DNA of 32,000 bases from Planctopirus limnophila DSM 3776 (GTDB lineage: Bacteria > Planctomycetota > Planctomycetia > Planctomycetales > Planctomycetaceae): positions 1,410,001 to 1,442,000 of the forward strand of contig NC_014148.1 of assembly GCF_000092105.1 (NCBI RefSeq). The letters run 5' to 3'. Shown one piece after another: positions 4,295-32,000 of this stretch. The notes beneath the pieces were generated by a model, which worked only from the letters and a program-made list of their open reading frames with translations, did no database searches and was not told the DNA's origin. The translations under genes were made by a program, and so were the position numbers. The stretch's first letter is position 1, and every line of letters starts with the position of its first letter.

Positions 4295-4476
4295 CGCCAC
4301 TGCTGACTCGCCCACCAGCACCGTAGGGTCCGCTATGCGGACCATATTCCGTCCACCACCACCCACAGCGTCTTCAACAGCAAGGTGCCTGCCCCCGTGC
4401 CATGCTTGCGGCTCTGAGCAAGCATGTCTCTTCTACTTTGAACGATCAACTCCATCCACAAATCCGGCATGCTCAT
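4295..4476 (+). repeat. Mosaic repeat copy 1: degenerate Q, then P, then S
   Basis: P runs 4319-4392 (caccGTAGGGTCCGCtatGCGGACCat...ccaccaccacccac.gcgtcttcaa...aaggtgcctgcc). The S hairpin is CATGCTTGC (4401-4409) / GCAAGCATG (4418-4426), followed by tctcttctacttt and the tail ...ccatccacaaatcc.gcatgctca. The tail matches 15616-15690. Confidence 0.85.
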
Positions 4477-4616
4477 CCGTGCTGTGAACATGACGTGCAG
4501 CCAGAAACGAGGCGAAAAGACATAAAACAGAGAACTTCTTGAGTTATGTCCCGTTAAAAGTCATGATTCTTTGGGCAGGCTGAGAGGAAATCAAAACTTA
4601 TGAACAAGGGTCGCCC

Positions 4617-5111
4617 GTGAGTCCAGGTTTTCAGCGATTAATGTGTTGTGGTTTTGCCTTGATGGTGCTGGGTTGTGAACAGCTTTCTTTACCCAGCTTG
4701 AATGCCAAACCAGGTTCTGTACCTGTCGTTAATGAGACCGGGCAGGAACAGGCAAGTTCCCGTCCCGAGATTATCATCACTCCCGAAGCGTTCAATGAGA
4801 TCCGGCAGATCATGAAACGCATTCATGTCGCCGACGACGAATATTTGCGGATCGTCCTGAAATCAGGAGGCTGCACGGGCTATCTCTATGAACTTGGATT
4901 TGCAGAAGAGATCGAAGAAGGCCATCAGGTGATCCAATATCAAGGTCTGAACATCATCACTCCCAGGCATCTCGCAAAGGTCATCGATGGTACGACGATT
5001 TCATTTCTGGAGCTTGAAGATCGCAAAGGATTCCAAATGACCAATCCCAAGTTCGAGGGCGAAAACTCGGATTACTGGATTCAATGGCTCAAAGAGCATG
5101 ATCAGAAATAG
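4617..5111 (+). CDS. Exported (lipoprotein-type signal) HesB/IscA-like domain protein lacking the C-terminal Cys pair
   Basis: GTG start. The N-terminus MSPGFQRLMCCGFALMVLGCEQ has a lipobox-like VLGC. The core IIITPEAFNEIRQIMK...LRIVLKSGGCTGYLYELGF...GTTISFLE...GFQMTNP aligns by eye to the IscA/ErpA fold. Only the first ligand Cys (GGCTG) is kept and the terminal CGCG motif is absent. Confidence 0.7.
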   Translation: MSPGFQRLMCCGFALMVLGCEQLSLPSLNAKPGSVPVVNETGQEQASSRPEIIITPEAFNEIRQIMKRIHVADDEYLRIVLKSGGCTGYLYELGFAEEIEEGHQVIQYQGLNIITPRHLAKVIDGTTISFLELEDRKGFQMTNPKFEGENSDYWIQWLKEHDQK

Positions 5112-5148
5112 GAATTGTGAAAAAGTCGCCTCCCTTTATTGAACCTTT

Positions 5149-5320
5149 CACCGTAGGGTCCGCTGTGCGGACCATATTGCCCATAGCACTGCTAATGGAA
5201 ACATCTTCATAAGCAAGGTGCCTGCCAATGCCCCAATCCGCACGACAGGGTGGCACTGCTGGCTTGCCCAGCAGTGGTTTTAAGGGAACGTGGTTAAGGT
5301 GGTCCATTCGAGATCACCCT
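5149..5320 (+). repeat. Mosaic repeat copy 2: P, then an R/Q composite
   Basis: P starts at 5149, 38 nt after the stop of the previous gene. CAGGGTGGC lies at 5246-5254, followed by Q hairpin CACTGCTGG/CCAGCAGTG (5254-5276) and gtggttaagg (5290-5299). AGGGTG (5247-5252) can pair with CACCCT (5315-5320). Confidence 0.8.
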
Positions 5321-5425
5321 ATTGCTATAAAGGATTGATTGCAGTCTTGGTAAAAGCAATTGAGGATGTCATTCAAATGGTGATGTTAACTTGGCTGAAT
5401 GTGTGATCGTGGCAAAGTTATACGA

Positions 5426-5450
5426 GCACTGCTGGACAAGCCGGCAGTGC
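5426..5450 (+). repeat. Solo Q-type hairpin variant
   Basis: GCACTGCTGG-acaag-CCGGCAGTGC forms a 10-bp stem with one T.G pair. That pair is tolerated only if the + strand folds. Confidence 0.6.
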
Positions 5451-5573
5451 CACTCGGACGCTTTGTGGTATCGTGTGCTTGTTGCCGGTAATAAGATGCT
5501 GGTCTTTTGTTGTAAATAGGCAAAGTAATCTAATTACCTGAACCCATTTCTAAAAGATGTATAGCAATAACAA

Positions 5574-5663
5574 CACCGTAGGGTCCGCTGTGCGGACCAT
5601 CTCGCGATAACCACCACCCACGACATCTTCAAAAGTAGGGTGCATGCCAATGCACCAATTCGC
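5574..5663 (+). repeat. Mosaic repeat copy 3: P only
   Basis: caccGTAGGGTCCGCtgtGCGGACCatctcgcgataaccaccacccacgacatcttcaaaagtagggtgcatgccaatgcaccaatt, about 110 nt upstream of the S1-domain gene. Confidence 0.85.
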
Positions 5664-5770
5664 TCCGTGACACCTATAGTTCTCTACGAGCAATCCTCGC
5701 CACTTAGCGTATTTTACACAACAGCTTCTTGTGACAGTCGTCACCGTCACTTATTCTAGAGAAAAAAGCC

Positions 5771-6130
5771 TTGGGACAAAAAAGTCAACAACCGAACTCT
5801 TACGAGAGCATTTCAGCAACGTGGAAGAGTTACTCCCAGGAGGCATGGGAAGAACTCATGGCGAAGTTCCCTCCGGGTACACCCATGACTGGTCAGGTGA
5901 TTGATACGGCTGTCTTCGGTGTATTTGTCCGTTTGGATGAAATCCCAGACGTCAAAGCACTCCTGGAAATCATTCACTTCGGACCATTGTTTACCAAGCC
6001 ACCTGGCCAAAACAACTTTCCAGAAGACTATCCTCAAGTCGGTGACCAGCTGAAAGTCAGAGTTCTGGGCTGGTGCCTGAAGCCTGTGGACGTCCGATTG
6101 ACCAACCTCGACCATCTGGAATGGTATTGA
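5771..6130 (+). CDS. Small stand-alone S1 (OB-fold) RNA-binding domain protein
   Basis: The S1-like pattern is present: PGTPMTGQVIDTAVFGVFVRL ... VGDQLKVRVLGWCLKPVDVRLTNL. The track start at 5771 is TTG and the first ATG is at 5858. The upstream W..L..KF.PG context resembles S1 repeat linkers, so I keep the longer ORF. Confidence 0.6.
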   Translation: MGQKSQQPNSYESISATWKSYSQEAWEELMAKFPPGTPMTGQVIDTAVFGVFVRLDEIPDVKALLEIIHFGPLFTKPPGQNNFPEDYPQVGDQLKVRVLGWCLKPVDVRLTNLDHLEWY

Positions 6131-6146
6131 ACTAGGCTATCAATGG

Positions 6147-6233
6147 CACCGTAGGGTCCGCTGTGCGGACCATCTTCCGCCCACCACCACCCACGACATC
6201 TTCAAAAGCAGAGTGCCTGCCAATGCAACAATT
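6147..6233 (+). repeat. Mosaic repeat copy 4: P only
   Basis: It starts 16 nt after the stop of the S1-domain gene: caccGTAGGGTCCGCtgtGCGGACCatcttccgcccaccaccacccacgacatcttcaaaagcagagtgcctgccaatgcaacaatt. Confidence 0.85.
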
Positions 6234-6428
6234 ATTGGCACGATCACACAGATGCGGCCAACGATGACCACTTCTTCCGTGAGAGAACCGGCTTTGATCC
6301 GAGATTGTCCCTGAATCTGGGTGATCTCGTAATGCAAACCAAAACCCGACGATGCCAGATCGAACGTCATATCCGTGTGGAGATCGTCGGCTTGGGATGT
6401 GCCTGAGCCCATGATGGTCGCCATGGGA

Positions 6429-6506
6429 AGGGTGGTGCCCAAAAACCTCCTGTGGCAAAGCCACCCCGGTAGAAATCAGCATTTCAACCGGGGACACCCT
6501 GCGAAC
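6429..6506 (+). repeat. Compact R-type element: closing stem plus two internal hairpins
   Basis: AGGGTG (6429-6434) pairs with CACCCT (6495-6500). The internal hairpins are GTGGC-aaa-GCCAC (6452-6464) and CCCCGGT-16 nt-ACCGGGG (6464-6493). The 3' 12-mer caccctgcgaac (6495-6506) is identical to 16945-16956. Confidence 0.55.
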
Positions 6507-6671: not shown

Positions 6672-6706
6672 GGTGGCAGGGTGGCTGCCGTTGAAATCCG
6701 ATTTCT
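6672..6706 (+). repeat. Solo 5' R module, also the right arm of an imperfect inverted repeat with 6471-6501
   Basis: ggtggcagggtggc (6672-6685) is identical to 16887-16900. Segment 6676-6706 matches the reverse complement of 6471-6501 at about 26 of 32 positions by manual alignment. Confidence 0.55.
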
Positions 6707-6870
6707 TTCGCAGTGTTGAAGCCGCAAGAGGTCTTATTCCCCGTCAACAACTGTTCTGATTCCGCCTGATTTTATGGTGTAGATGAGAGTGGCTTGCTGG
6801 TTGTTACGGTCATCTCCTCTGCGTGCGGCACACGGGTCGATCGAAGACGAGCAAGGTGTGTCAGCCTGTG

Positions 6871-11040: not shown

Positions 11041-11265
11041 GGGATTCGAAAAGGTCTACGCCCCGCAGAAACACATCAATGAGTGCTTACCTCTTGGATT
11101 CCCCCGTCATCACAGTTACAGTGAATTGTTCCTCAACACTGAAGTCGCGCCGACATCCAACCCTTGTGCCGCCAGCCCAAAGTTTGATTGTCGCGACAAA
11201 ACATGCCTGCCGAGTTTATCCATCCCATGTCGCACTATCCTGTCCTCAAATTTGTCCCTCACGTC

Positions 11266-13814: not shown

Positions 13815-15272
13815 ATGGCTTTTGAAATTGATCCTTCCACGCCGCGGTCGATTGTCCGGCGGGATTTTGTCAAAGCCTTGACGATGGCTGGTCTGGCCGC
13901 CATGGCCACAGGCGAACCACGAGTCGTACGGGCCAATTCCGAAGAGCCGCTGGTCCATCCCAAACCGACGGCCGATGCCTGCATTCTGCTGTGGATGGCC
14001 GGCGGTATGGCGGCTCCCGACAACTTTGACCCCAAACGCTACCGCCCTTTCGAAAAGGGCCTGGCCGTCGCGGAGATGCTCAGCACGTTCCCCGCCATCA
14101 ATACCTCCATTGATGGTGTGCAGATTTGCGAAGGGCTCGAAAACATCGCGCAGATCCTCCATCGCGGGACGCTCATTCGCAGTGCTGTCCAACCCGATCT
14201 GGGGAGCATTCTCCATAGCCGCCATCAGTATCACTGGCATACAGGCTATGTCCCTCCCCAGACAGTCGCCTGCCCGCATTTAGGTTCGTGGATGGCAAAG
14301 GTCCTTGGGCCGCGAAATCCCGTCATGCCCGCGTTCATCAATATCGGGCAGAGACTGGAAGGTGTCGGTGAAAGCGAAGAACTCAAGGCGTTTACGACAG
14401 CCGGATTCTTTGGCAGCGAGTTCGGGCCGATGAACCTTCCGTTCCCGGAAGAAGCGGCTCAATCGGTCAAGCCGCCCCAGGGCATGACCAACGCGCGATT
14501 CGCCAATCGTGAGCGGCTCTTCCGGCAGTTGATCGACAAAAATCCCCATCGCGACCAGCTCAGCGATTATCAGCAGCAATCGATGCTCCGCAGTCTCGAC
14601 AACGCCTACCGTCTGCTCAGTTCCAAAGAGCGGGAAGCGTTTGATATCACGCTGGAACCGAAAGAGGTTCAGGAAAAGTACAATACCGGTCGCTTTGGCA
14701 GAGGTTGTCTCCTTGCCCGCCGACTCATTGAGAATGGCGCACGGTTCGTGGAAGTCACGACCGAGTATGTTCCGTTCCTGCACTGGGACACGCATGCAAA
14801 TGGGCATGAAACCGTGGCCCGCATGCACCAGGAAATTGATCGCCCGATTGCCACACTCGTTCAAGAACTCGATGAACGAGGGCTGCTCGATCGCACCCTG
14901 GTGATTGTCGCCAGCGAGTTCAGTCGCGACGCCCTCATGGAAGGAAAACCCGGCTCAAACGCAGGGGATCAAGCCGCCTTCCGCGACGACAACATCAGTG
15001 AAATGGCCCATTACGGCCTGCATCGACATTTCACTGGCGGCAGCAGCGTCCTGATGTTTGGCGGTGGCATGAAAAAAGCCTACGTCCATGGCCAGACGGC
15101 TGATGAACGCCCGCTGATTGCCATCAAAGATCCCGTCACCGTCATGGACTTGCATGCCACAATCATGACGGCCATGGGCATCAGCCCCAAGACGGCCTAT
15201 TCCATTGAAGGCCGCCCATTCTATGTCACAGAAGATGGTAAAGGCCTCCCCGTCCAGCAGCTCTTCACCTAA
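13815..15272 (+). CDS. DUF1501 family protein (sulfatase / alkaline-phosphatase-like fold) with a twin-arginine signal
   Basis: The Tat motif is SIVRRDFVKALTMAGLAAMATG. The 485-aa length and the position right after a DUF1549/DUF1553 gene match the standard Planctomycete two-gene cassette. Confidence 0.85.
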   Translation: MAFEIDPSTPRSIVRRDFVKALTMAGLAAMATGEPRVVRANSEEPLVHPKPTADACILLWMAGGMAAPDNFDPKRYRPFEKGLAVAEMLSTFPAINTSIDGVQICEGLENIAQILHRGTLIRSAVQPDLGSILHSRHQYHWHTGYVPPQTVACPHLGSWMAKVLGPRNPVMPAFINIGQRLEGVGESEELKAFTTAGFFGSEFGPMNLPFPEEAAQSVKPPQGMTNARFANRERLFRQLIDKNPHRDQLSDYQQQSMLRSLDNAYRLLSSKEREAFDITLEPKEVQEKYNTGRFGRGCLLARRLIENGARFVEVTTEYVPFLHWDTHANGHETVARMHQEIDRPIATLVQELDERGLLDRTLVIVASEFSRDALMEGKPGSNAGDQAAFRDDNISEMAHYGLHRHFTGGSSVLMFGGGMKKAYVHGQTADERPLIAIKDPVTVMDLHATIMTAMGISPKTAYSIEGRPFYVTEDGKGLPVQQLFT

Positions 15273-15283
15273 CTGTCCCTGAG

Positions 15284-15305
15284 GTAGGGCAGGCTCCCGC
15301 CTGCC
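15284..15305 (+). terminator. GTAG plus GC-rich hairpin 12 nt after the DUF1501 stop (REP-like; possible terminator)
   Basis: GTAG-GGCAGGC-tccc-GCCTGCC forms a 7-bp stem and is followed by ttccttct. The T tract is weak, so a terminator role is tentative. Confidence 0.35.
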
Positions 15306-15319
15306 TTCCTTCTGCCTAG

Positions 15320-15472
15320 CACCGTAGGGTCCGCTCTGCGGACCATATTCGGCATCCCACCACCCGCGACATCTTCAAAGGTAGGGGACATGCCAATACA
15401 CCAACTCGCACAACCGGGTACCACTGCTGGCTTGCCCAGCAGTGGTTCTTCAGAAAGAGTGGTTAAGGAAAG
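15320..15472 (+). repeat. Mosaic repeat copy 5: P, then Q, then the lead-in to R
   Basis: P starts at 15320 (caccGTAGGGTCCGCtctGCGGACCat...). Q hairpin CCACTGCTGG-cttgc-CCAGCAGTGG lies at 15421-15445 and gtggttaagg at 15459-15468. The copy runs directly into the tandem array. Confidence 0.85.
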
Positions 15473-16337
15473 CAGGGTGGCCCAGGCGTGGCTCTAAACG
15501 TCTGGGTGAAGATAGAAACAAGAAACACCGTTTCCCGGGGTGGCACGTCCCTGAGGTCCCCCGAAGGGCGTGGTTTTGACCATGGATCAAGATAGAAATA
15601 TACCCCATTGTGTGCCATGCTTGCGGCTCTGAGCAAGCATGTGTTTTCAAATTCAAAGATCAATGCCATCCACAAATCCAGCACGCTCACTCAAAACCGC
15701 CACGATCGCACGAAGCTCTCTTATTCTGATCAAACAGGTTGGCCCAGGTTGACTGTACTCAGTCTACCTGGGTGGCAACGCCACAAGAGGTTAATGAGAT
15801 CGAAGTGAGCTCGCAGGGTGGCCCAGGCGTGGCTCAAAACGTCTGGGTAAAGATAGAAACAAGAAACACCGTTTCCCCGGGGTGGCACGTCCCTGAGGTC
15901 CCCCGAAGGGCGTGGTTTTGACCAGGGATCAAGATGGAAATATACCCCATTGTGTGCCATGCTTGCGGCTCTGAGCAAGCATGTGTTTTCAAATTCAAAG
16001 ATCAATGCCATCCACAAATCCAGCATGCTCAATTGAAACCGCCACGATCGCACGAAGCTCTCTTATTCTGATCAAACAGGGTGGCCCAGGCGTGGCTCTA
16101 AACGTCTGGGTGACGACAGTCACAAGAAACTCCATCGACGGGGTTGCACGTCCCTGAGGTCCCCCGAAGGGCGTGGTTTTAACCATGGATCACGATGGAA
16201 ATATACCCTATTGTGAGCCATGCTTGTGGCTCTGAGCAAGCATGTGTTTTCAAATTCAAAGATCAATGCCATCCACGAATCCAGCACGCTCACTCAAAAC
16301 CGCCACGATCGAACAAAGCTCATCCTCTCTGAACAAA
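15473..16337 (+). repeat. Tandem array of three units of about 262 bp (R, middle segment, S) plus a 79-bp partial unit
   Basis: Unit A is 15473-15734, the partial 5' module is 15735-15813, unit B is 15814-16076 and unit C is 16077-16337. A and B differ at about 9 positions, including a 1-nt indel. C diverges from them mainly within 16111-16140. No reading frame is conserved across units. Confidence 0.9.
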
Positions 16338-16449
16338 CCATCCAGCCGATGATTTCATGACGGCGAGAAATGAAGAACTGAAAGTATAACTAGAACGTTG
16401 TTTAAAGCGACTATTGACGGACCGTTGGCACACAAAAATAGGTGCATCT

Positions 16450-16878
16450 ATGGCGGAAATATCAGATATTGAAGAGGAATGTGAAGATTTAGACTGGTAT
16501 GCTGTTGATAAATCGGGGTGTATTGGGCACTTTGCGACCGGAGGGCGTGGATTCCTGCCTCGATCCGTCAAGAATTCTTCTGAAAATCGTTTGGCGTTGC
16601 ATTCTTTTTTTGTTGAATTGCCTGTGTCTTGTGCAAGCGTTTGTACTGACGCAGCCGGTAACAACGACTTCTTTCTTGCAATGTCGGGCAGGGGACTATA
16701 TTCATACGACTACCTACCTGGAAAAGGTCGCAATCTCGGCTATTCGCGCAACTGCATACCCACGTCTCCTCTAAAATGCGAAGCATGTCCAGAGAAAATA
16801 CAAGCGATACTTAAGCACACGATATCCTACGTATTGTTCTCTCAGGCTGAAAACGTCTCACCCCAAATGTTTTCGTAG
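16450..16878 (+). CDS. Hypothetical protein (orphan, lower-GC islet)
   Basis: 142 aa from the ATG at 16450 (MAEISDIEEECEDLDWYAVDKSGCIGHFATGGRGFLP...). The track start at 16414 is TTG. My hand count gives 37-47% GC over 16321-16500, against 57% in the one core-gene line I counted (12001-12060). I recognise no family. Confidence 0.5.
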   Translation: MAEISDIEEECEDLDWYAVDKSGCIGHFATGGRGFLPRSVKNSSENRLALHSFFVELPVSCASVCTDAAGNNDFFLAMSGRGLYSYDYLPGKGRNLGYSRNCIPTSPLKCEACPEKIQAILKHTISYVLFSQAENVSPQMFS

Positions 16879-16886
16879 CGCTGTTA

Positions 16887-16957
16887 GGTGGCAGGGTGGC
16901 CCAGACGTGACTCTGCACGTCTGGGTGACGAAAGTCACATGACGCACCCTGCGAACT
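16887..16957 (+). repeat. Compact R-type element with a predicted three-way junction
   Basis: The closing stem is GCAGGGTG (16891-16898) / CACCCTGC (16945-16952). Hairpin 1 is CCCAGACGTG-actctg-CACGTCTGGG (16900-16925, 10 bp perfect). Hairpin 2 is TGAC-GAAA-GTCA (16926-16937). It is homologous to the first ~80 nt of each tandem unit. Confidence 0.75.
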
Positions 16958-17112
16958 CGCCATTGCCTGGATCGAGTGTATGATGCTACCCATCCACCTC
17001 ACACGCTCGTGGTGACCTGGGCCTCGCAGGAGGCGAACACCGAGCAGAATCACACTCAATGAGTCCTGACCCCTCTTGATTTCATTCGTTTTAATTCTTT
17101 ACTGCAAGGACG

Positions 17113-17562
17113 TCAATGATCGCAATAAACATCGACGCATTCACCATTCCGCACCCTCACACCTACCATGCGACCAGAATCGGAAATGGAAAACCACACC
17201 CTGAGATCATTCCATCCATGAAGTACCACACCATCAATACGCAAGCCACTCGCAGCATCGATAATAGGCCCGTATACTGACCCAATAGCATATTTGCGTG
17301 CAGCAACAATAATTTGCTCCAGCGAGTCTAACAGGTCTCGTACCCTGCTGGCATTTGATGACAAGAACATAAAGCCAGCATTGTCATCCAGAAACAAAGT
17401 GAATCGACCCAGCCTGTCACACTCCTGAATAGCGACCCATGATCCATTCTCGTGTTTGAACATACTCTGAACATCATTCACGTTAAACACCTTTCTAGGG
17501 AAATCAAAGAGCCCTGACCCCTTTGATACTTCCTGATCCGGAAGCTGGCCTCTCACACCCAA
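17113..17562 (-). CDS. Hypothetical protein (orphan, convergent with 16450-16878)
   Basis: The maximal ORF is 149 aa and starts at a TTG at 17562. The first ATG is at 17463 (MFKHENGSWVAIQECDRLGRFTLFLDDNAGFMFL...). I recognise no family and the start is uncertain. Confidence 0.45.
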   Translation of the reverse strand: MGVRGQLPDQEVSKGSGLFDFPRKVFNVNDVQSMFKHENGSWVAIQECDRLGRFTLFLDDNAGFMFLSSNASRVRDLLDSLEQIIVAARKYAIGSVYGPIIDAASGLRIDGVVLHGWNDLRVWFSISDSGRMVGVRVRNGECVDVYCDH

Positions 17563-24475: not shown

Positions 24476-24776
24476 TGCATTCCCCGAAATCACAAGAGGA
24501 CTAGAGCCCGAGGCGAAAGCTGCAGTCGCGACATCTTGCCGCGACTTGCAGTTTCATCGACTCTCGCATCCGTGCGAGATGGCTGGGCTATCCACCATGC
24601 GAGAAGTATCGGCGATGTCGATTCTTCCAGTTGATTCACAAGTGGAGCCAGAGCCGGCCTGATTGATCGATTTTATCCATCAGCACCTTACAGCCGATGG
24701 TAACGTTACAGCCGATAATCTCAACGCAAATTGACTGATTGATCGACTCAGTCCTCAAGATCGTCAGACAAGGGCT

Positions 24777-25997
24777 TCAAGATGGTAAGACAGGGGCTTC
24801 AGGAGATTTACTTTGTCTCGTCAGGCTTAAAATCATGCCCATACTGACGAGGCTGACAATGAGATTGCTCCCCCCCGCACTGATGAGTGGATGAGAAATT
24901 CCCTTGGGCGGAACCATCGCTGTCACCACAGCGATATTCAACAGAGCCTGCCCGACCAGTTGAGTGAGCAGCACAAAACTCGCCAATCGTCCGACATTCA
25001 GTTCTGGCCTCTCTTGCCCTCCCGCTTGTCGAATGAGTTGCAGTCCAAAACAGAAGAGGCTGCCCCATAAAATCAGCAGAGAAAGCGTTCCCACCAGCCC
25101 CAGTTCCTCACCGATCACGGCGAACACAAAATCGGTATTCGCTTCTGGCAGAAAGCTGAGCTTCTGATACCCCATTCCTAAACCAACGCCTGTCCAGCCG
25201 CCACTTCCTAAAGTCACCAACGATTGTTTCAACTGATAAGGTGCTTCGCGCCAATCACTCCATGTCTCCAGAAAGCCTGTAATTCTGCGAAGCTGATAGT
25301 CCTTCAGGAGAAAAACTCCCAGACTGGCAGGAATCAACGACAATAGCCCCCATCCAAAATACCTCAGCGGTAAACCGGCAGTGAACAATGTGAGTAGGAC
25401 TCCGCCAAAGAGAAACAAGGTCGTCCCCAGATCGGGCTGCAGAGCCACCAGTCCCATGACAATGAATGGCGGAAGGAGCAGCGGGACGCGAAAGCCAGTC
25501 AATGTTTCACTCAGCGACCAGCGAGGCAAAGTCGGATTCTGCAGGGAAATTCTCACGGCAACCCAAAGTGGCAAGGCAATCTTGGCCAGTTCTGAAGGTT
25601 GCAGTGTCAATCCCGCCAGGCGCAGCCAGCGCCGGGCTCCTTTCACCCGAACCCCAATTCCCGGGATCAGCACAAACACCAGCAGAATCATGACTCCCAA
25701 AAGCAGCCAGGGTGCGGCTCTCACCCAGATTTTGGCCGGGATTGCAGCGGCCACACCAGCCGCAACCAGCCCCAGGGCGATGAATGTCAGATGCTTGGAA
25801 AGATAAACCTGATCAATTTCTGTGGGGCGACTGGTCACACTGGCACTGTGGACCACGAAGAGCCCGAAACCTAGCAGCAATCCCGCGAGAGCGACAAAAA
25901 CAGTTCTCGTAAACTCGATCTGAGAGGCCAGTTTTTCGTCGCTGGTGGGAACAGTGGGCTTAAGTTCCAGGATTTCCGGGGAAATGGCAGTGCTCAT
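24777..25997 (-). CDS. ftsW: SEDS-family protein, FtsW-like (immediately downstream of mraY)
   Basis: Polytopic membrane protein with LQPSELAKI, LQPDLGT and HPLISAGGSN motifs. The gene symbol is assigned only from its adjacency to mraY. The ATG is at 25997 and the track GTG at 26015. Confidence 0.75.
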   Translation of the reverse strand: MSTAISPEILELKPTVPTSDEKLASQIEFTRTVFVALAGLLLGFGLFVVHSASVTSRPTEIDQVYLSKHLTFIALGLVAAGVAAAIPAKIWVRAAPWLLLGVMILLVFVLIPGIGVRVKGARRWLRLAGLTLQPSELAKIALPLWVAVRISLQNPTLPRWSLSETLTGFRVPLLLPPFIVMGLVALQPDLGTTLFLFGGVLLTLFTAGLPLRYFGWGLLSLIPASLGVFLLKDYQLRRITGFLETWSDWREAPYQLKQSLVTLGSGGWTGVGLGMGYQKLSFLPEANTDFVFAVIGEELGLVGTLSLLILWGSLFCFGLQLIRQAGGQERPELNVGRLASFVLLTQLVGQALLNIAVVTAMVPPKGISHPLISAGGSNLIVSLVSMGMILSLTRQSKSPEAPVLPS

Positions 25998-26063
25998 TTG
26001 TCCCCTCGGCTCCACATTTCACGCGACAACGACACTCCCCGGGCAATTTCTCACCATGAGTAT

Positions 26064-29460: not shown

Positions 29461-29893
29461 GGATCTCGATTTCTCAGCGATTCAATACTTCGAGTTCAAA
29501 CTCTCTGGCGATTGGTCCGGTTTGATCAACTGTGGCCGATGATTCACTGGGGCTGTTGATTATTCAGGCCCGTTGATCATCTGGGACTAAGCGCTCACAG
29601 AGCACGATAGCGTAGAACCTGTCTGCCATGGTGTCTACGTTGAGGATACCAGACCCGATCCAGCGAACGGTCTGGCCATCAGGTTTTGACGGAAACGGTC
29701 AGGTTTTTCCGCTGATTTCAAAAATTCTCTGTGGACACGGACTGATCGCTCAATTGCTGTTCACGAGTGGTCAGGCTAACCTGCATTGAGGTTTGATACT
29801 CGCCGAACAGTGGTCTTGGTACCGGGACTTTGATTTTCCCACCCTTGAGATATTTCGCAGCCGAACATGGCCTGCACTAAGGAGTTAACGAAC

Positions 29894-30883
29894 ATGACGA
29901 AGCCTCTCCGCGTGGCAGTGACTGGTGCCGCTGGTCAGATTGGATACGCCACACTTTTCCGCCTCGCCTCGGGCGAGATTTTTGGTGCTCAGCAGCCCGT
30001 TATTCTGCACCTCATTGAGTTGCCCCAGGCCCAGGGGGCTTTGGATGGCATTCACATGGAACTGGATGACTGTGCCTTCGCGACTCTGGCGGGCGTCGAA
30101 AAGTTTTCGAGTGACAATCTCGAACTGGCTTTCAAAGATGTCGATTGGGTGCTGTGCATTGGTTCAATTCCTCGTGGAAAGGGGATGGAACGCAGCGATC
30201 TGATTCGCATTAACGGCCCGATCTTCACCAATACTGGCAAGGCCATTAATGCAGCAGCCTCTCGCGATGTGAAGGTGCTGGTTGTGGGGAACCCCTGCAA
30301 TACCAACTGCCTCATTGCCATGTCCCATGCTCCAGACATTCCCCGTGCAAATTGGTTCGCCATGACCCGTCTGGATCAGAACCGGGCAGCTTCACAACTG
30401 GCCATTAAAGCCCAGCGTCCTGTGGCAGCCGTTCAGAACGTGGCGATCTGGGGCAATCACTCCGCCACTCAGTACCCGGATTTCATGAACGCCAAGATTG
30501 ATGGGCAGCCAGCTTCTCAGGTCATTACTGATCATGAATGGCTGAAATCGACCTTTATCTCGACTGTCCAGCAACGCGGTGCTGCCGTGATTGCTGCCCG
30601 TGGCGCTTCCAGCGCAGCCTCTGCAGCGAATGCTGCTCTTGATACCGTCAAGAGTCTGGTGAATCCTACACCGGCTGGAACCTGTATTTCAGCCGCCGTC
30701 TTGAGCGATGGCAGCTACGGTGTCGAAGAAGGGATCATCAGCGGCTTCCCACTCTCCAGCGACGGCAAAAACTGGAAGATCATTCAGGGCTTCCAGGTGG
30801 ATGAATTCAGCCGCTCGAAAATCGATGCGACCATCAACGAACTGAAGACCGAGCGGGACACTGTGAAAGATCTGCTCCCTTAA
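29894..30883 (+). CDS. mdh: Malate dehydrogenase (LDH-like type 2 MDH)
   Basis: [40 protein letters not shown] and IWGNHS motifs are present. The Shine-Dalgarno AAGGAG at 29879-29884 lies 9 nt before the ATG at 29894, so I prefer that start to the track start at 29867. Confidence 0.9.
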
Positions 30884-30923: not shown

Positions 30924-30965
30924 AAAAACCGGTCGATTGCCTCGAGGCAATCGACCGGTTTTTTT
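30924..30965. terminator. Bidirectional rho-independent terminator between the convergent mdh and glgA genes
   Basis: AAAAA, then CCGGTCGATTGCC (30929-30941), loop tcga, then GGCAATCGACCGG (30946-30958), then TTTTTTT. The 13-bp stem is perfect and has an A run and a T run on either side. Confidence 0.85.
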
Positions 30966-30993: not shown

Positions 30994-32000
30994 TCAATGA
31001 CCATGTGATCGCTTGAGGCAAGCCTGCTGGTAGGCGTTGAGATACTCTTGAGCACTCCGTTTCCATGACCAGTCACGTGTCATGCCGGTCTTCTGCAGTT
31101 TAAGCCAGGTGGTTTTGTCGAGGAAGTAACCCAGAGTTCGGCAGATCTGCCGGAAAAGAACTTCGCTTTTATATTCATAGAAGCTGAAGCCATTGGCTGT
31201 CCCTTTACCGAGATTTGCTTCGGTGACATCAATGACCGAATCGGCCAGGCCACCCACAGCTCTCACGATAGGAACAGTGCCATAAGCGAGGCTGTACATC
31301 TGATTGAGGCCGCAAGGCTCGAACTGGCTGGGCATCAGAAAAATGTCACTGCCGGCTTCAATCTGGTGCGAGAGCGCTTCGTCATAGCCAATCTTGACGG
31401 CGAATTTTTCGGGATGCTCTTTCGCGAGTGCCATCAATCCTTTTTCGAGGACAGGATCTCCCGTTCCCAGAAAGACACATTGCACATTCAAATCGGCCAG
31501 ATCGCGGGAACATCCCAGAATCAGGTCGAGGCCCTTTTGCGAAGTAATCCGACTGATCATTCCGAAGAGCGGAACATTCATGTGGACAGGGAGCCCCATC
31601 GCCTTTTGCAAGGCCACTTTACAGACGGGCTTACCGATGGACACTGTCGTGTGGTCGTAGTTCTCTGCAATGTAAGGATCGGTGGCTGGGTTCCAGACTT
31701 CTTCATCAATGCCATTGAGAATGCCGACCAGGTCTTCCCGGCGGGATGTCAGCACGCCATTGAGGCCATTACCGAATTCGGCCGTCTGAATTTCCCGGGC
31801 GTAAGTCGGGCTGACAGTCGTCAGCATGTCGGCAAAAGTGATCCCGGTTTTCAGCAGGTTGAGCTGTCCGTGGAACTCCATCTGTCGCCAGTTGAAGTAC
31901 TTCCAGTCGAGACCTGTGAGTACCATATCCCAGTGCCAGAACTGGCCTTGAAAAGCCATATTATGGATGGTGTAAATGCTGGCGGTGCGCTCGAGGCCGT
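30994..32000 (-). CDS. glgA: Glycogen synthase (GT5); the 5' end runs off the window end
   Basis: The track ORF starts at 31959, but the frame stays open to 32000 (..GLERTASIYTIHNMAFQGQF, the HNxxxQG motif). VSPTYAREI, FLMPSQFEPCGL and GGLADSV motifs are present. Confidence 0.85.
   Translation of the reverse strand, partial: GLERTASIYTIHNMAFQGQFWHWDMVLTGLDWKYFNWRQMEFHGQLNLLKTGITFADMLTTVSPTYAREIQTAEFGNGLNGVLTSRREDLVGILNGIDEEVWNPATDPYIAENYDHTTVSIGKPVCKVALQKAMGLPVHMNVPLFGMISRITSQKGLDLILGCSRDLADLNVQCVFLGTGDPVLEKGLMALAKEHPEKFAVKIGYDEALSHQIEAGSDIFLMPSQFEPCGLNQMYSLAYGTVPIVRAVGGLADSVIDVTEANLGKGTANGFSFYEYKSEVLFRQICRTLGYFLDKTTWLKLQKTGMTRDWSWKRSAQEYLNAYQQACLKRSHGH

Follow-up and report, generated by a model that had tools for sequence, protein, structure and literature searches.

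What kind of element is reiterated head to tail behind the DUF1501 gene of Planctopirus limnophila DSM 3776? In the stretch of 32,000 nucleotides analysed here (contig NC_014148.1, positions 1,410,001 to 1,442,000 of the forward strand; called the window, to which coordinates refer unless a comparison locus, designated by L and a number, is named), three units of about 262 bp, A, B and C, lie at 15473-16337. Each carries a 5' module with a double hairpin (H1), a separate hairpin (stem 2), a further hairpin (S) and a tail. The original prediction, made from the letters alone, left two answers: a tandemly amplified family of structured non-coding RNA genes, or a repeat active as single-stranded DNA (ssDNA). 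Our analysis argues with good confidence, short of certainty, that 15273-16340 is a cluster of repetitive extragenic palindromic (REP) sequences resembling the bacterial interspersed mosaic elements (BIMEs), in which a composite of REP-type modules has been tandemly duplicated. Most probably this is selfish DNA of an ordinary kind rather than a new RNA-gene family.

The layout of the array is clear from independent searches. Tandem Repeats Finder recognised a tandem array with a period of 261 (score 832), and the repeat search returned a 218-nt family present three times (D1), the 5' module present four times (D4) and further families (D5, D6). The three units, the H1-only copy between A and B (15735-15813) and a solo H1 at 16892 were aligned with MAFFT, and the coordinates originally proposed for units, partial copy, solo copy and hairpins were all borne out by the sequence, this alignment and Tandem Repeats Finder (Table 1). 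About nine differences, including a 1-nt indel, had been counted between A and B; the alignment gives nine substitutions and one indel (96.6% identity), and A and C are 90% identical. The divergence of C had been placed mainly within 16111-16140, which holds for that stretch, but the last ~20 nt of C differ as well. Direct reading agrees with the H1 stem of unit A at 15481-15506 and its G.T at pair 6, with the T.G-containing stem 2 (CACGTCC/GGGCGTG), and with the T.G loop-closing pair of S in unit C (16227/16236). In the stand-alone H1 between A and B the stem comprises 13 pairs, one of them a T.T mismatch, the second hairpin (GGC-AAC-GCC) is intact and ACAAGAGG forms the tail; the closest relatives of this copy, among the matches listed, are in L080, L005 and L049. 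In the Logan contigs, assembled from short reads of the isolate, unit A breaks off after 30 nt, as a repeat would lead one to expect; they provide no test of copy number.

The identity of the array can be approached best through H1. This is a ~55-nt element with GTGG directly 5' of a 9-10-bp hairpin (26 nt long), a second hairpin of 4-5 bp (hairpin 2) and then ACAAGAGG or ACAAGAAAC; in the planctomycete matches the layout reads CAGG-GTGG / CCCAG-stem-loop-stem'-CTGGG / T-NNN-loop-N'N'N'-A / CAAGAGG. When one genome per species was scanned for CAGGGTGGCCCAG-N10-30-CTGGGT, at least 120 stretches were obtained, about half of them from Planctomycetota (Planctomycetaceae, Schlesneria, Pirellulaceae, Kolteria, Brocadiia); the remaining stretches were rejected as H1, being evident chance matches in high-GC genomes. 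In every H1 copy of the window GTGG directly precedes the first stem base (C9), a feature that the pattern search itself fixed.

The original prediction had singled out the balance of stem-disrupting and stem-preserving substitutions, and in H1 the substitutions preserve the pairing. At the four inner stem positions left free by the search, all 196 pairs were intact in 49 unique copies from about 55 planctomycete loci, among the matches listed, with three to four pair types per position, six G.T and no A.C; shuffling of the partners among these copies left a mean of 56% and a maximum of 66% paired. With a covariance model made from 13 copies, 131 copies were found in 437 kb. In their alignment 94.6% of the cells are paired as against 74.3% after shuffling, none of 500 shuffles matching the observed values, and two-sided changes affect each of the 14 pairs (341 double-change cells); sliding the partner lowers pairing to 28-47%. 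It should be emphasized that the 131-copy alignment was fitted to the model, and that the 49-copy count serves as an independent check. It had also been held that the stems stay paired only if the + strand folds. This is true of the few local changes, but family-wide the mismatches in the H1 stem are G.T in 17 and A.C in 13 cases; since these numbers are similar and both strands of unit C fold well, strand-specific RNA folding is not supported as the constraint on H1.

A constraint at the level of folded DNA would be exerted by a transposase, and such an enzyme was found beside H1. In Kolteria novifilia (L049) a 170-aa open reading frame (ORF; 4679-5191, minus strand) matches the NCBIfam model REP_Tyr_transpos with 105.8 bits (cut-off 80) and also matches Pfam Y1_Tnp; it carries the motifs PDHVH, WQARYY and YMHENPVRAGL of a REP-associated tyrosine transposase (RAYT), and tandem H1 arrays with a period of ~61 bp lie on either side of it. 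By tblastn, RAYT homologs adjoin H1 in L042, L097 and L034, and L042, fetched by the pattern, shows the order H1(+), RAYT(+), H1(-). Since loci fetched by the pattern had been selected for H1, RAYT loci were also fetched by protein alone, which removes this ascertainment bias; all four of them (L124, L128, L129 and L130, the last from Tautonia) have H1(+), RAYT(+), H1(-). The H1 heads at these loci are mostly GGGTGG, with GGGTGC and GGGTAT as variants, so that GGGTGG-type heads are confirmed even though the scan had fixed them. As a separate observation, the two arrays of L049 (4463-4680 and 5213-5520) contain five H1 each, in one orientation opposite to the RAYT gene; further copies lie at 2791, 5941 and 6204, and the arrays give many overlapping spurious ORFs.

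P. limnophila DSM 3776 has a RAYT of its own (ADG66729.1/WP_013109160.1), encoded in the same 5,423,075-bp record as the DUF1501 protein of the window (ADG66956.1/WP_013109387.1). It falls into the 90%-identity cluster of the RAYT of L124, scores 120.3 bits against REP_Tyr_transpos (cut-off 80) and 39.4 bits against the IS200 model (cut-off 55), and its best match among solved structures is the E. coli TnpA-REP (4ER8, E = 2e-4). A GT[AG]G foot and a hairpin are the features which that enzyme recognises. A tblastn search of the window returned no RAYT gene, and a single one was present in 240 kb of loci selected for S; the REP copies far outnumber the RAYT genes. RAYT homologs number more than 1,200. 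Taken together, H1 appears to be the REP sequence of a planctomycete RAYT clade and to flank the RAYT genes in inverted orientation, and RAYT is predicted to bind and to cleave H1 as ssDNA.

The distribution of H1 would suit a dispersed repeat. It occurs in both orientations, and 66 of the 131 elements are joined in 33 doublets, inverted and convergent, whose gaps cluster around 22 or 53 nt, an arrangement absent from units A, B and C, where the copies are direct repeats. Copies lie between tandem, convergent and divergent genes in 43, 16 and 4 cases against a background of 86, 29 and 35 according to crude ORF calls, so that H1 is rarer between divergent genes (4/63 vs 35/150, Fisher p = 0.003); 96 of the 131 copies are outside ORFs of at least 150 aa. 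The 32-kb window holds seven to eight copies, and a closely related population about eight per 240 kb. In Acidobacteriota, an H1-like hairpin with the same head was seen at 6962-7058 of L074 and a RAYT homolog with 37% identity at 136-549 of L087, which hints that the H1 family extends beyond Planctomycetota.

S is a different matter, and it was followed by scanning metagenomes with four positions of stem or loop left free. This gave 32 copies in 28 stretches, from two related assemblies of a Planctopirus-like population; GTGC stands immediately 5' of the stem in 31 of the 32, and the flanks are otherwise unrelated. In the window the S pattern has four matches, and none was found in 100 shuffles, so chance is excluded. 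S is thus a second dispersed family of tagged palindromic repeats. Several copies have an inverted partner ~50 nt downstream (CATGCTCAC-TCAAAGCC-GTGAGCATG-GCAC) with compensatory stem changes, and the tail in the window (...CAGCACGCTCAC-TCAAAACC-GCCACGATCGCAC...) is the decayed form of such a partner, so that S plus tail is a worn doublet of the REPIN type, no fragment of a gene being involved. Few copies exist of stem 2, whose two further loci are L054 and L155, and each is followed by GT(T/C)TTAA; stem 2 shares a GGTGGC head with H1 in the window, not in L054.

The modules also part company elsewhere. In L054, from a relative, the order is REP family a, S with its tail, H1, and stem 2 lies at another place of the locus; in L124 S immediately precedes the H1 that flanks the RAYT gene. 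The 262-bp unit is a composite of separately dispersed modules and not a single entity. Together, the flanking of RAYT genes by H1 and the recognition of S as a second tagged repeat family support the ssDNA-active repeat, one of the two answers originally offered. Two side observations concern S-bearing composites. At 8950-9310 of L156 (metagenome VFQR01002112.1) a composite of S and an H1-like REP (GGGTGGCCCGGCCA...TGGCCGGG, hairpin 2 TTGTCGTG/CACGACAA) occurs twice with a spacing of 263 nt, so composite duplication at such a period recurs. In L155, S hairpins at 11165, 12111 and 14221 sit in near-identical contexts of ~120 nt, spaced 946 and 2110 nt, which suggests a larger repeated segment or an S-carrying gene family.

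The nature of the tail bears on a further proposal, that the array is a degraded gene or the remnant of a conventional mobile element with terminal inverted repeats, such as a miniature inverted-repeat transposable element or the end of an insertion sequence (IS), and contains no REPs. A 107-aa ORF does run across unit B on the minus strand (15730-16053), and in one minus frame the tail reads ...AGFVDG[IV]D... with few third-position differences between the copies. However, Pfam gives no match to the ORF, which is interrupted in A and C; the tail is better explained as a spacer with a decayed inverted S partner, and once it was read in this way the idea of minus-strand coding, based on its codon-like variation, was dropped. 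Furthermore, no inverted repeat is formed by the two ends of H1 (CAGGGTGG... and ...ACAAGAGG), and no DDE transposase is associated with the units. We regard such a remnant as the least credible of the explanations considered, its probability being close to negligible.

The other answer originally offered, a family of RNA genes, would take each unit as a structured small-RNA gene with TTGACC-N17-TATACC as promoter and S as terminator. The conserved hairpins with wobble and compensatory changes are in its favour, as is the synteny of the unit in two relatives, and the + strand of unit C folds better than its shuffles (z = -3.6). The minus strand of unit C also folds well, however (z = -2.4), and as both strands beat the shuffles the folding test does not discriminate. 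The predicted promoter string is indeed present at 15576-15604 and reads TTAACC in C, but it fails a sigma-70 promoter scan, which found no promoter-like site inside the units; in a related metagenome-assembled genome (MAG; L127) it reads GTGACC and is not conserved, and its position ~7 nt before the S region would give a transcript of ~35 nt, a bare S hairpin. A sigma-54 reading of the TGGCAC in the heads was rejected on inspection of the spacing. As had been recommended, Rfam was searched: no match reached the gathering score anywhere in the window, and at 15200-17100 there were only chance-level miRNA and snoRNA matches (E ~1-7) and no relevant family even at E <= 10. The statement that no described RNA family or IS end can be recognised was therefore right as to RNA families, but the connection to REPs and RAYT had been missed. 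Finally, the modules are freely recombined at other loci, H1 is found in either orientation and on the flanks of a transposase gene, units A and B have lost hairpin 2, and relatives have one unit or none. On these grounds the RNA-gene half of the original prediction is not supported; independent small-RNA genes are unlikely, and the probability that we would give to a tandem set of them is very low.

The comparison of relatives, also recommended at the outset, suggests a history of the array. Within the interval between the DUF1501 gene and the S26 signal peptidase gene, where P. limnophila has three units and a partial one, L127 has one (5473-5734), which runs on into the downstream ORF and the solo H1 (retained there at 6289-6344), P. 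ephydatiae (L125) has one from which the 5' half of H1 is lost, and P. hydrillae (L126) has none. Window positions 16077-16948 align to L127 5473-6345 with 93% identity, and L125 aligns from 16102 on; unit C is, as judged from these alignments, the copy orthologous to the single unit of the relatives. C and the L127 unit are 89.7% identical, close to the 90% between A and C and far below the 96.6% between A and B, so the first duplication would date from about the time of the species split, and that of A and B would be recent. In the P. limnophila lineage a composite that was ancestrally single, as it still is in two relatives, would thus have been tandemly duplicated, with the split between A/B and C first, that between A and B later, and a REP of another subfamily placed between A and B. 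Three pairs of hairpin 2 are destroyed in A and B, which looks like neutral decay. The two 142-aa genes that flank the unit of L127 were considered as paralogs; no similarity was found between them.

The same comparison bears on a role in cis, according to which the repeats have been exapted as cis-acting RNA, forming hairpins of a DUF1501 operon, with S and stem 2 as terminators and with protection of 3' ends against exonucleases, their REP origin being historical. Such 3'-end protection was demonstrated for the REPs of E. coli. Every module is co-oriented with the upstream + strand genes, S (9 bp followed by TGTGTTTTC) is terminator-like in all three units where shuffled sequence leads one to expect 2.4 sites in the region, GTTTTGACC stands after stem 2, the L054 copy of which lies 52 nt past the stop of an ORF, and H1 favours gene 3' ends. 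Additionally, the changes in S and stem 2 among the orthologs all keep pairing (G-C to C-G, G-C to G.T, C-G to T.G), two of them through G.T pairs that exist on the + strand only. Nevertheless the genes on either side of the S at 4401 are divergent, which leaves it with nothing to terminate, three reiterations are of no obvious added use for termination, one unit or none suffices in relatives, and in the locus set, which is small, stem columns are as variable as non-stem columns (10/58 vs 39/205). As a full explanation this is, in our estimate, improbable, if less so than independent RNA genes. A secondary cis-RNA role of S and stem 2 is plausible: by terminating transcripts of the DUF1501 operon or stabilising their 3' ends, the hairpins would have effects at the RNA level that are secondary to their nature as repeats.

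The BIME-like reading is further characterised by the surroundings of the units. From the stop of the DUF1501 gene (15272) on, 15273 to ~16340 consists entirely of repeats, and the same repeats recur at 4297-6233; at least five hairpin families (REP-a, REP-b, REP-c, H1 and S) together with stem 2 fill both zones. All modules at 15273-16947 are on the + strand, and the neighbouring genes encode PSCyt/PSD1, DUF1501 and S26 signal peptidase proteins. REP family a (CACC-GTAG-GGTCCGC-NNNN-GCGGACC) occurs five times in the window, on the + strand throughout (4323, 5153, 5578, 6151, 15324), family b (GTAG-GGCAGGC-TCCC-GCCTGCC) forms an inverted doublet in L054 (2249-2270 and 2339-2360), and the GGT(G/A)-headed family c (CACTGCTGG-CTTGC-CCAGCAGTG) forms one at 5249-5276(+)/5427-5454(-). 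A 3' fragment of H1 lies at 5723-5745 on the minus strand.

Table 1. Repeat modules of the window; bit scores are those of the H1 covariance model.
Feature	Position	Strand	Remarks
GTGC-tagged S copy with tail	4397-4475 (S 4401-4426)	+	joined to REP a, not to H1
H1-type REP	6443-6501	-	compensatory stem variant CCCCG...CGGGG; 29.6 bits
H1-type REP, degenerate	6677-6734	+	weak match: 16.5 bits, E = 0.017
REP family b	15284-15305	+	fuzzy search; first repeat after the DUF1501 stop
REP family a	15320-15406	+	includes a conserved ~60-nt extension
Family c hairpin	15417-15444	+	repeat and fuzzy searches
Unit A	15473-15734	+	H1, stem 2, S, tail in that order
Unit A, H1 REP	15473-15528	+	stem 15481-15506; second hairpin decayed; 54.3 bits
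Unit A, stem 2	15544-15572	+	followed by GTTTTGACC
Unit A, GTGC-tagged S	15612-15641 (hairpin 15616-15641)	+	followed by TGTTTTC
Unit A, tail	15642-15734	+	spacer and decayed inverted S partner
Stand-alone H1 REP	15735-15793	+	other subfamily; 40.7 bits
Spacer after stand-alone H1	15794-15813		20 nt
Unit B	15814-16076	+	H1 15814-15869, stem 2 15886-15914, S 15958-15983
Unit C	16077-16337	+	H1 16077-16132 with intact hairpin 2, stem 2 16147-16175, S 16219-16244; 68.8 bits
Solo H1 REP	16892-16947	+	14 nt past the stop of ORF 16414-16878; 71.3 bits

Some observations on the other repeats stand in their own right. In the zone 4297-6233 the 87-nt module of REP family a is present four times, always on the + strand (4319, 5574 and 6147, and shorter at 5149), and the CACTGCTGG hairpin forms an inverted doublet with a 150-nt spacing (5243-5276/5427-5460); window 5153-5576 is 96% identical to L054 3478-3904. 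The two H1-type REPs at 6443-6501 and 6677-6734 are in divergent orientation, 175 nt apart. A short motif, ACACTCAATGAGTCCT(G/A)..., was seen near H1 copies (17050-17074, 17504-17522 and 11076-11094 of the window; 1568-1585 of L054).

How far does this system resemble those already described? Like the REP/REPIN-RAYT systems (E. coli TnpA-REP 4ER8, Pseudomonas REPINs), H1 has a GT[AG]G-type tag, here GTGG, directly 5' of an imperfect palindrome, appears to be extragenic for the most part, with a preference for gene 3' ends and many copies per RAYT gene, commonly forms inverted doublets, encloses the RAYT gene between inverted copies, and has stem subfamilies that differ by complementary changes, with G.T pairs (PMC3733652). 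It differs in being bipartite, a short second hairpin that covaries being followed by a tail of conserved ACAAGAGG in a total of ~55 nt, in its host, Planctomycetota and not Proteobacteria, and in that most Planctopirus copies are singletons or head to tail and not doublets. The REP-RAYT kind of system is well known; the bipartite layout of H1 is unusual for a REP. BIMEs of E. coli and tandem REP clusters (Di Nocera et al. 2013, PMC3733652) share with the present region the intergenic mosaic of REP types and short motifs, the reiteration of units with flanking DNA and a copy number that varies between related genomes, but E. coli BIMEs alternate Y and Z elements with a period of tens of bp, whereas the present modules all point the same way and recur with a period of 262 bp. 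The same literature reports clusters reiterated with their flanking DNA, GTGG tag variants, frequent G.T pairs and REPs in Planctomycetes (PMC3733652); the main REP survey covers a single planctomycete, R. baltica, and the literature searched contained no description of Planctopirus or Planctomycetaceae REP families.

Elements of the IS200/IS605 type, with TnpA-Y1, likewise have an enzyme of the Y1 HUH superfamily and a folded ssDNA hairpin beside a short guide or foot. Unlike them, the P. limnophila RAYT lies below the IS200 cut-off and above that of REP_Tyr_transpos, and the hairpin elements vastly outnumber the RAYT gene, are dispersed alone and have no TnpB partner. Class 3 TnpA-Y1 enzymes with CnGA-foot structures are reported chiefly from Planctomycetes and Acidobacteria (Quentin et al. 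2018, PMC6006769). They resemble the present case in the phylum and in a Y1 enzyme flanked by atypical high-copy secondary structures; however, the foot of H1 is GTGG and not CnGA, and in place of their YV..EQ signature the motifs (P/Q)DHVH, WQ and Y(L/M)HxNP look like class 2, the RAYTs.

Several points weigh against a REP cluster, and have to be set beside the evidence for it. The scan pattern fixed the head and the outer stem of H1, the conservation of which is partly by construction. For P. limnophila itself the link between H1 and RAYT rests on the at least 90%-identical ortholog of L124 and on other relatives, and the action of RAYT on H1 is a prediction; for S and stem 2 a transposase partner is hypothetical. 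H1 contains two hairpins and exceeds a classical REP in length, and head-to-tail tandem copies, as here, are reported to be rare for REPs (PMC3733652). The T-runs after S and stem 2 and their pair-preserving changes are also the pattern of a functional terminator or RNA hairpin. Furthermore, no clean insertion or deletion of a single REP was found at orthologous sites, because the breakpoints coincide with larger rearrangements. With these points considered, a tandemly duplicated composite of REP-type modules is still the explanation that we prefer. According to it, the hairpins would stay paired since RAYT, an HUH/Y1 enzyme, recognises and cuts REPs as folded ssDNA, and stem variants would persist only as paired variants.

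A bolder proposal can be built on this. H1 might represent a new bipartite class of REP, with a GTGG foot, two covarying hairpins and the ACAAGAGG tail, co-diversified with a RAYT clade found throughout Planctomycetota; hairpin 2 and the tail might form a new recognition or cleavage module, and the clusters might double as arrays of terminators or stabilisers in 3' untranslated regions. We offer it tentatively, as a possibility that in its entirety is rather doubtful.

Two further features of the window touch none of the above. A perfect 40-nt palindrome (AAAAACCGGTCGATTGCCTC/GAGGCAATCGACCGGTTTTT) at 30924-30963, between the convergent ORFs 29867-30883(+) and 30994-31959(-), resembles a bidirectional intrinsic terminator. 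A 22-bp tandem repeat of 2.1 copies (TCAAGATCGTAAGACAAGGGCT) lies at 24755-24801, at or just past the 3' end of ORF 24777-26015(-). GC skew is negative across the window but confounded with gene orientation.

In this article a candidate new RNA family is removed, as a REP-RAYT system would explain its covarying hairpins. For annotation it is a warning that such clusters break short-read assemblies and yield spurious ORFs. As to the organisms, Planctomycetaceae harbour several co-resident families of tagged palindromes, of which H1 is tied to its transposase. Studies of REPIN-RAYT co-evolution gain a deep-branching, non-proteobacterial system with clear stem-switching subfamilies.

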